DNA from: a virus
Lineage: Duplodnaviria > Heunggongvirae > Uroviricota > Caudoviricetes
Virus record (IMG/VR): IMGVR_UViG_2531839233_000007
DNA length: 5,809 nucleotides
Strand: one strand, 5' to 3'
The notes under the pieces: generated by a model
The model's database searches: none
What the model was told of the DNA's origin: nothing
Seen by the model: only the letters and a program-made list of their open reading frames with translations
Shown: positions 5,527 through 5,565 of the stretch, one piece after another
How the letters are laid out: every line of letters starts with the position of its first letter
Position numbering within the stretch: position 1 is the first letter of the stretch
Made by a program: the position numbers and the translations under genes

Positions 5527-5565
5527 TGTACTTAAAGTACTTTACAATGATGAACACAAAGTACA
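5527..5565. promoter_or_regulatory. second operator-like cluster (left-operator analogue) with candidate rightward promoter
   Basis: TGTACTTAAAGTACT (5527..5541) and TGAACACAAAGTACA (5551..5565) match the TGWAC-N5-GTWCA motif; -35-like TTTACA 5541..5546 and -10-like CATTAT 5564..5569 with 17-bp spacer. Confidence 0.45.

Follow-up and report, generated by a model that had tools for sequence, protein, structure and literature searches.

The sequence from 5527 to 5565 is in all likelihood the left operator pair of a Rac/Qin-type prophage, placed over the early-left promoter (pL), where binding of the repressor would silence the early-left operon. The initial annotation had proposed such an OL/pL counterpart, and the gene order, the position of the promoter, the shared motif and the substitution pattern all agree with it, as does the positional homology to dicBp of Qin, PL933P of CP-933P and the RacR-controlled left operon of Rac. 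The operator motif, the promoter match, the geometry of the sites, their conservation, the synteny of the region and the covariation across immunity types were observed, and from the sequence we infer the binding, the repression, the cooperativity and the start site. The OL/pL switch is very probably of the ordinary, well-understood DicA-type prophage kind.

Immunity region, operator motif and probable early-left promoter

From the ORF list and the sequence, the window (the whole 5,809-nt stretch of viral DNA that was analysed) was recognized as a lambdoid immunity region in reverse orientation, and its features assign it to the Rac/Qin type. The minus strand carries a DnaC-like gene (2659–3405), an O-like gene (3412–4200), a YdaT-like gene for an analogue of CII (4278–4700; Pfam YdaT_toxin, 6e-11), which is ydaT in the annotated relatives, and a Cro-like HTH gene at the position of YdaS (4697–4951 in the ORF list, with the ATG at 4951). 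The Cro-like protein gave a weak HTH_17 match, and its gene is annotated in the relatives as 'helix-turn-helix transcriptional regulator' or 'Cro'. A palindrome of about 21 nt, TGTAACGC-N4/5-GCGTTACA, was also observed at the O-like gene in three copies with a spacing of 207 and 192 bp, two within the gene (3813–3837 and 4020–4044) and one just 5' of its start (4212–4236). These palindromes are candidate origin or regulator sites. On the repressor strand of the relatives, the repressor gene is followed by DUF1391 (ydfA/ydaF-like), dicF/dicB or kil, ydaE, racC, recE and recT, and this gene order is syntenic with the early-left arm of the Qin and Rac prophages of K-12.

The repressor gene (5031–5450, plus strand) encodes a DicA-like protein of 139 aa with an HTH_3 domain (Pfam, 1.8e-9) and no Pfam match to the S24 peptidase domain. 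The BLASTP comparison with K-12 DicA gave 28% identity over essentially the full length (alignment residues 30–137), and the score against the NCBIfam DicA subfamily NF007257 was 56.4 bits, which is below the cut-off of 101. Therefore, the protein is a DicA relative with a different specificity, and not DicA itself. The proven operator of K-12 DicA, Oc, is TTGTTAGTCATAACTAACAA (PMC3441716), and this sequence is unrelated to the TGWAC/GTWCA half-sites of the window. When genome contigs were searched for the repressor, a single locus was returned. The promoter scan found a candidate PRM, CTGACA-17-TATCAT, at 4995–5023 on the plus strand (10/12). With its predicted start at about 5030/5031, the repressor mRNA may be leaderless from the ATG at 5031, with operator c (see below) over the start codon, for which paaR2 and cI provide a precedent (PMC8630535).

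A simple terminator scan of 4600–5809 found no terminator, and a strong hairpin emerged from folding at 5454–5491 on the plus strand (dG −20.5 kcal/mol, z −5.1). This hairpin may act as the terminator for the repressor mRNA, although its U-tract is imperfect. Among 81 related loci, described below, the stems are constant and polymorphisms are frequent in the loop (5468–5475), and a hairpin followed by a T-run is present at the corresponding position in other immunity classes. The hairpin probably ends the repressor transcript, in which case pL would be an independent promoter.

The motif TGWAC-N5-GTWCW gave eight strand-hits without mismatch in the window, where 0.06 were expected, and none of 200 shuffles reached this number; with at most one mismatch, 12 strand-hits were obtained against 1.49 expected. 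All matches of full quality were intergenic and clustered in two places, with three sites separating the repressor gene from the cro-like gene and two beyond the repressor, and the additional one-mismatch matches at 508 and 2900 are intragenic, non-palindromic and at chance level. The OR cluster consists of operator a (TGAACTTTGAGTACA, 4967–4981), with half-sites invariant in the 81 loci, operator b (AGAACTGACAGTACA, 4991–5005), located 24 bp from operator a, and operator c (TGAACTTATGGTTCA, 5024–5038), which covers the start codon of the repressor gene; operators b and c were likewise identified by the motif scan together with the conservation in the 81 loci. The same two lines of evidence identified OL site 1 (TGTACTTAAAGTACT, 5527–5541) and OL site 2 (TGAACACAAAGTACA, 5551–5565). 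The latter is 24 bp from site 1, so that the OL and OR pairs have an equal spacing, at a distance of about 560 bp from each other. No third OL site was detected at up to one mismatch in 5451–5600, and OL thus comprises two sites only; a third operator is dispensable for the function. The initial annotation had described these two 15-mers as sharing the motif of the first cluster and had counted five related sites in the window; the scan reproduced the exact positions, the common motif and the number. The distance was overestimated, since site 1 begins at a distance of 77 bp from the repressor stop (5450), and not of about 100 bp. A full-text literature search gave no match to the operator sequences of the window, and the operator sequence is the previously undescribed, and sole new, part of the switch.

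The pair had also been said to overlap a plausible rightward promoter, and the promoter scan indeed gave a sigma-70-like match, TTTACA-17-CATTAT, on the plus strand, with the −35 hexamer at 5541–5546 and the −10 hexamer at 5564–5569. At the sequence level, both OL sites overlap this promoter: site 1 adjoins the −35 hexamer with an overlap of 1 nt, and site 2 occupies the spacer and the first 2 nt of the −10 hexamer. The promoter match is moderate (9/12), with a weak −10 CATTAT. Transcription from pL would start at about 5576, leaving a leader of about 160 nt before the ATG at 5738. The sequence ATTATA at 5565–5570 reads as TATAAT on the minus strand, and a minus-strand promoter at this position was rejected because it has no acceptable −35 and was not reported by the scan.

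From these features, the following mechanism can be proposed. Dimers of the 139-aa repressor would bind both of the 15-bp OL palindromes, and the binding is probably cooperative, as suggested by the 24-bp centre spacing, identical to that of operators a and b in OR (4967/4991). These palindromes are very likely targets of the Cro-like protein as well. Since site 1 adjoins the −35 hexamer and site 2 lies in the spacer and the −10 hexamer, their occupancy would exclude RNA polymerase, and would silence an operon that in the relatives runs from the leader through DUF1391/ydaG, dicF/dicB or kil, ydaE, racC and recE to recT. The repressor transcript would be stopped at the hairpin, leaving pL to act independently.

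Conservation of the half-sites and alternative explanations

A motif scan of related prophages had been suggested as a check on the operator pair. In our sample of 81 loci, in which the repressor is 99–100% identical and the flanks differ by up to 7%, the OL/pL stretch occurs as 35 distinct haplotypes, and the half-sites and the −35 hexamer are kept nearly invariant. Minor alleles were found in just 5 locus-cells at the 20 OL half-site positions, while they averaged 10.1 per position at the ten central-spacer positions and 6.2 in the 9-nt gap between the sites; in a permutation test, the half-site conservation reached significance only at P = 0.016. The −35 hexamer showed only two singleton variants in the 81 loci, and the −10 hexamer mainly one T-to-C variant, with positions 2 and 6 kept. 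The OR half-sites followed the same pattern as those of OL. Constant half-sites around a free centre are, as a sequence pattern, the signature of a selected dimer-binding palindrome, and because the substitutions spare the half-sites and the −35 hexamer and gather in the spacers and flanks, ongoing purifying selection is indicated.

These observations bear on what else the sites could be. If the OL palindromes were chance GTAC-rich sequence, or small hairpins of the terminator region, and not protein sites, their A/T-rich surroundings would favour palindromes, and each of them can indeed form a stem, of 4–5 bp at most. However, such stems are too short for stability, the real hairpin lies upstream at 5454–5491, and a motif expected 0.06 times was matched eight times; the half-sites are constant with the centre left free, and the same logic is repeated in about 12 other immunity types. 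This explanation has a negligible probability and is effectively refuted already. It is also very improbable that the pair and the promoter hexamers are a vestigial relic of a decaying prophage, persisting through recent shared ancestry but no longer driving or controlling transcription. Two observations would fit such a relic: the gene that follows is an out-of-frame hybrid with a junction that was not found elsewhere, and cryptic elements are numerous among those of the Rac/Qin type (PMC10448788, PMC5700373). Nevertheless, substitutions in the 35 haplotypes avoid the half-sites and the −35 hexamer, and the region was found in phage genome records, e.g., vB_EcoS-666R9 and Tritos, and in 1045 of 5426 complete E. 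coli genomes (at least 80% coverage).

A further explanation, to which we give a small chance, is that the OL sites serve mainly the Cro-like protein, or looping between OL and OR or autoregulation of the repressor, and not simply the blocking of pL by bound repressor. PaaR2 and YdaS both repress PL933P, and PaaR2 octamerises (PMC8630535); the equal 24-bp spacing of the OL and OR pairs, about 560 bp apart, points in the same direction. However, these functions are compatible with the silencing of pL by the repressor, and sites lying over the −35 hexamer, the spacer and the −10 hexamer predict occlusion by any protein that binds them.

Comparison across immunity types and with known prophages

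Using a conserved 19-mer of the leader as an anchor, more than 100 further viral contigs were recovered. By the sequence 5' of the leader, the loci divide into 16 classes, which correspond to about 12 distinct immunity types. In all of the 16 classes, the best sigma-70 match has its −35 starting at −65 to −70 and its −10 ending at −37 to −42 from the anchor, so that the −10 hexamer of the window shares its offset with every class. Class-specific palindromes flank the −35 hexamer and fill the spacer in each class, and in about ten classes they reappear in the repressor/cro intergenic region of the same class; this recurrence was not clear for L169 and L175 at the 8-mer threshold. One class, L110, combines the paaR2-paaA2-parE2 architecture and the GTTTAGT repeats of CP-933P with the same leader.

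The co-occurrence of operator and repressor was counted in 103 leader-anchored loci, which were not chosen by the repressor. The repressor was present in 24 of the 25 loci with TGWAC-type sites, as compared with 1 of the 78 loci without them, and tight physical linkage partly explains this co-occurrence. Across the related phages (about 12 immunity types), the operator sequence covaries with the repressor allele, to which the linkage also contributes. The co-occurrence nevertheless shows that the operators and the promoter belong to the exchangeable module; the repressor, the terminator, the operators and the promoter are swapped as one unit by recombination. The right boundary of the exchange unit is a few bases from the inferred transcription start (L087–L200, −115 to −20 from the anchor), and the cross-type comparison thus fixes the boundary of the module right at the start of transcription.

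In lambda, three OL sites are present, CI is cleaved in the SOS response, rexAB lies between cI and PL, and the N/nutL system provides antitermination. The window resembles lambda OL/PL in having a promoter of the same sense past the repressor gene, operators shared with OR, and the 24-bp spacing of a cooperative pair. On the other hand, a third OL site, an SOS-cleavable CI, rexAB and N/nutL were not seen in the window.

The closest parallels are drawn with prophages of E. coli, and for the promoters at the homologous position in Qin and CP-933P, binding or reporter experiments have already been carried out. As in Qin, a cryptic prophage of K-12, a short non-cleavable DicA-type repressor is divergent from a cro-like gene, a promoter, which in Qin drives ydfA(DUF1391)-dicF-dicB, lies directly 3' of the repressor gene, and a repressor palindrome is located within the promoter spacer. 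The Qin promoter dicBp is described as a PL analogue and showed 22-fold derepression on deletion of dicA (PMC10448788). The half-site in Oc is TTAGT/ACTAA (PMC3441716), whereas it is TGWAC/GTWCA in the window; moreover, Qin lacks most of the leader of about 160 nt, and three operators are described for Qin as compared with the two found in the window. PL933P of CP-933P from E. coli O157:H7 is placed at an identical offset from the conserved leader, which it shares with the window, and its operator motif is likewise common to the OR and OL positions. When this promoter was placed ahead of gfp, the CI-like PaaR2 and the Cro-like YdaS each repressed it about 100-fold (PMC8630535). CP-933P differs from the window in the paaA2-parE2 toxin-antitoxin pair between the repressor (PaaR2) and pL, and in its GTTTAGT-based motif, and it has been described with three OL sites and with repeats of two kinds.

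Rac has a nearly identical leader with the same ydaG-type start codon, and two repressor palindromes flank the −35 hexamer and fill the spacer of its promoter, TTGACA-17-TATAGT. RacR is known to bind GCCTAA/TTAGGC repeats (PMC5700373), and its depletion raised ydaG, ydaF, kilR, ydaE and racC by 40–70-fold (PMC11014345). However, RacR is just marginally similar to the repressor of the window, the half-site is TTAGGC/GCCTAA, and the start-to-start spacing is 25 bp in Rac as compared with 24 bp in the window.

With this analysis, a module carried by about one fifth of complete E. coli genomes gains a promoter map and an operator specificity, TGWAC-N5-GTWCA. The hosts of this immunity module include Shiga-toxin-producing lineages, and the module governs inhibitors of cell division (dicB, dicF and kil) and the recET recombination genes. 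Since Qin, Rac, CP-933P and lambda are already known to follow this logic, the result adds little conceptually.

Leader and first gene of the early-left operon

The conserved leader of about 150–160 nt (5576–5737, plus strand) is common to at least 12 immunity types. The nucleotide diversity (pi) was 0.01–0.07 at 5594–5683 and 5699–5728, as compared with 0.15–0.25 in the following coding sequence, with an ascertainment bias near the anchor to be taken into account. The put-type antitermination RNA of HK022 consists of two stem-loops, which are located 3' of both the early-left and the early-right promoters. A processive antitermination RNA of this kind was rejected for the leader, given that the window holds no second copy of it, direct or inverted, that no Rfam family matched anywhere in the window at E ≤ 1, and that the single-sequence fold was not significant (z = −1.36). 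RNAalifold with 31 diverse leaders found none of 36 pairs to be compensatory, in sequences too conserved for covariation. The leader is C-rich at its 5' end, and a rut site or Rho terminator was likewise considered as an explanation and rejected, as the terminator published for Rac, 'trac', is located within racR and works on transcripts from PRM and not on the leader.

The ATG at 5668 is invariant and is preceded, at 9 nt, by GAGG. In the window and in the Rac types, this ATG begins an upstream ORF of 18 aa, MTAGFKFCSAAVSSATRR (5668–5724, plus strand), the stop of which overlaps the Shine-Dalgarno sequence of the next gene. In most of the ydfA-type relatives, the equivalent ATG is in frame with DUF1391 and gives 76–78 aa, with the frame maintained across a 3-nt indel. 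The start of the first translated ORF may be at 5668 instead of 5738.

A plus-strand gene start at 5738 had been proposed in the initial annotation. The ATG at this position is of the ydaG type, as in Rac, but the DUF1391-like sequence that follows from about 5750 is offset by +2 relative to it, so that 5738–5809 is a hybrid of a ydaG-type start and a DUF1391-like body, which runs past the end of the window. The exact junction at about 5750 was absent from the viral contigs, the metagenome contigs and the 5426 complete E. coli genomes that were searched. Since this out-of-frame junction is private to the window, the first gene may be defective, and the early-left operon in this window could be partly decayed.

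The conserved leader is the sole part of the region that might repay more work. We consider it possible, although rather doubtful, that the leader is a shared cis-acting control element of the Rac/Qin-type early-left operon. Candidate roles are that of an RNA modulating elongation or termination, sequestration of the ribosome-binding site by pairing of the 5' CCCC with the Shine-Dalgarno sequence AAGGGGA, and translational coupling or fusion of the upstream ORF at 5668 with the first gene.
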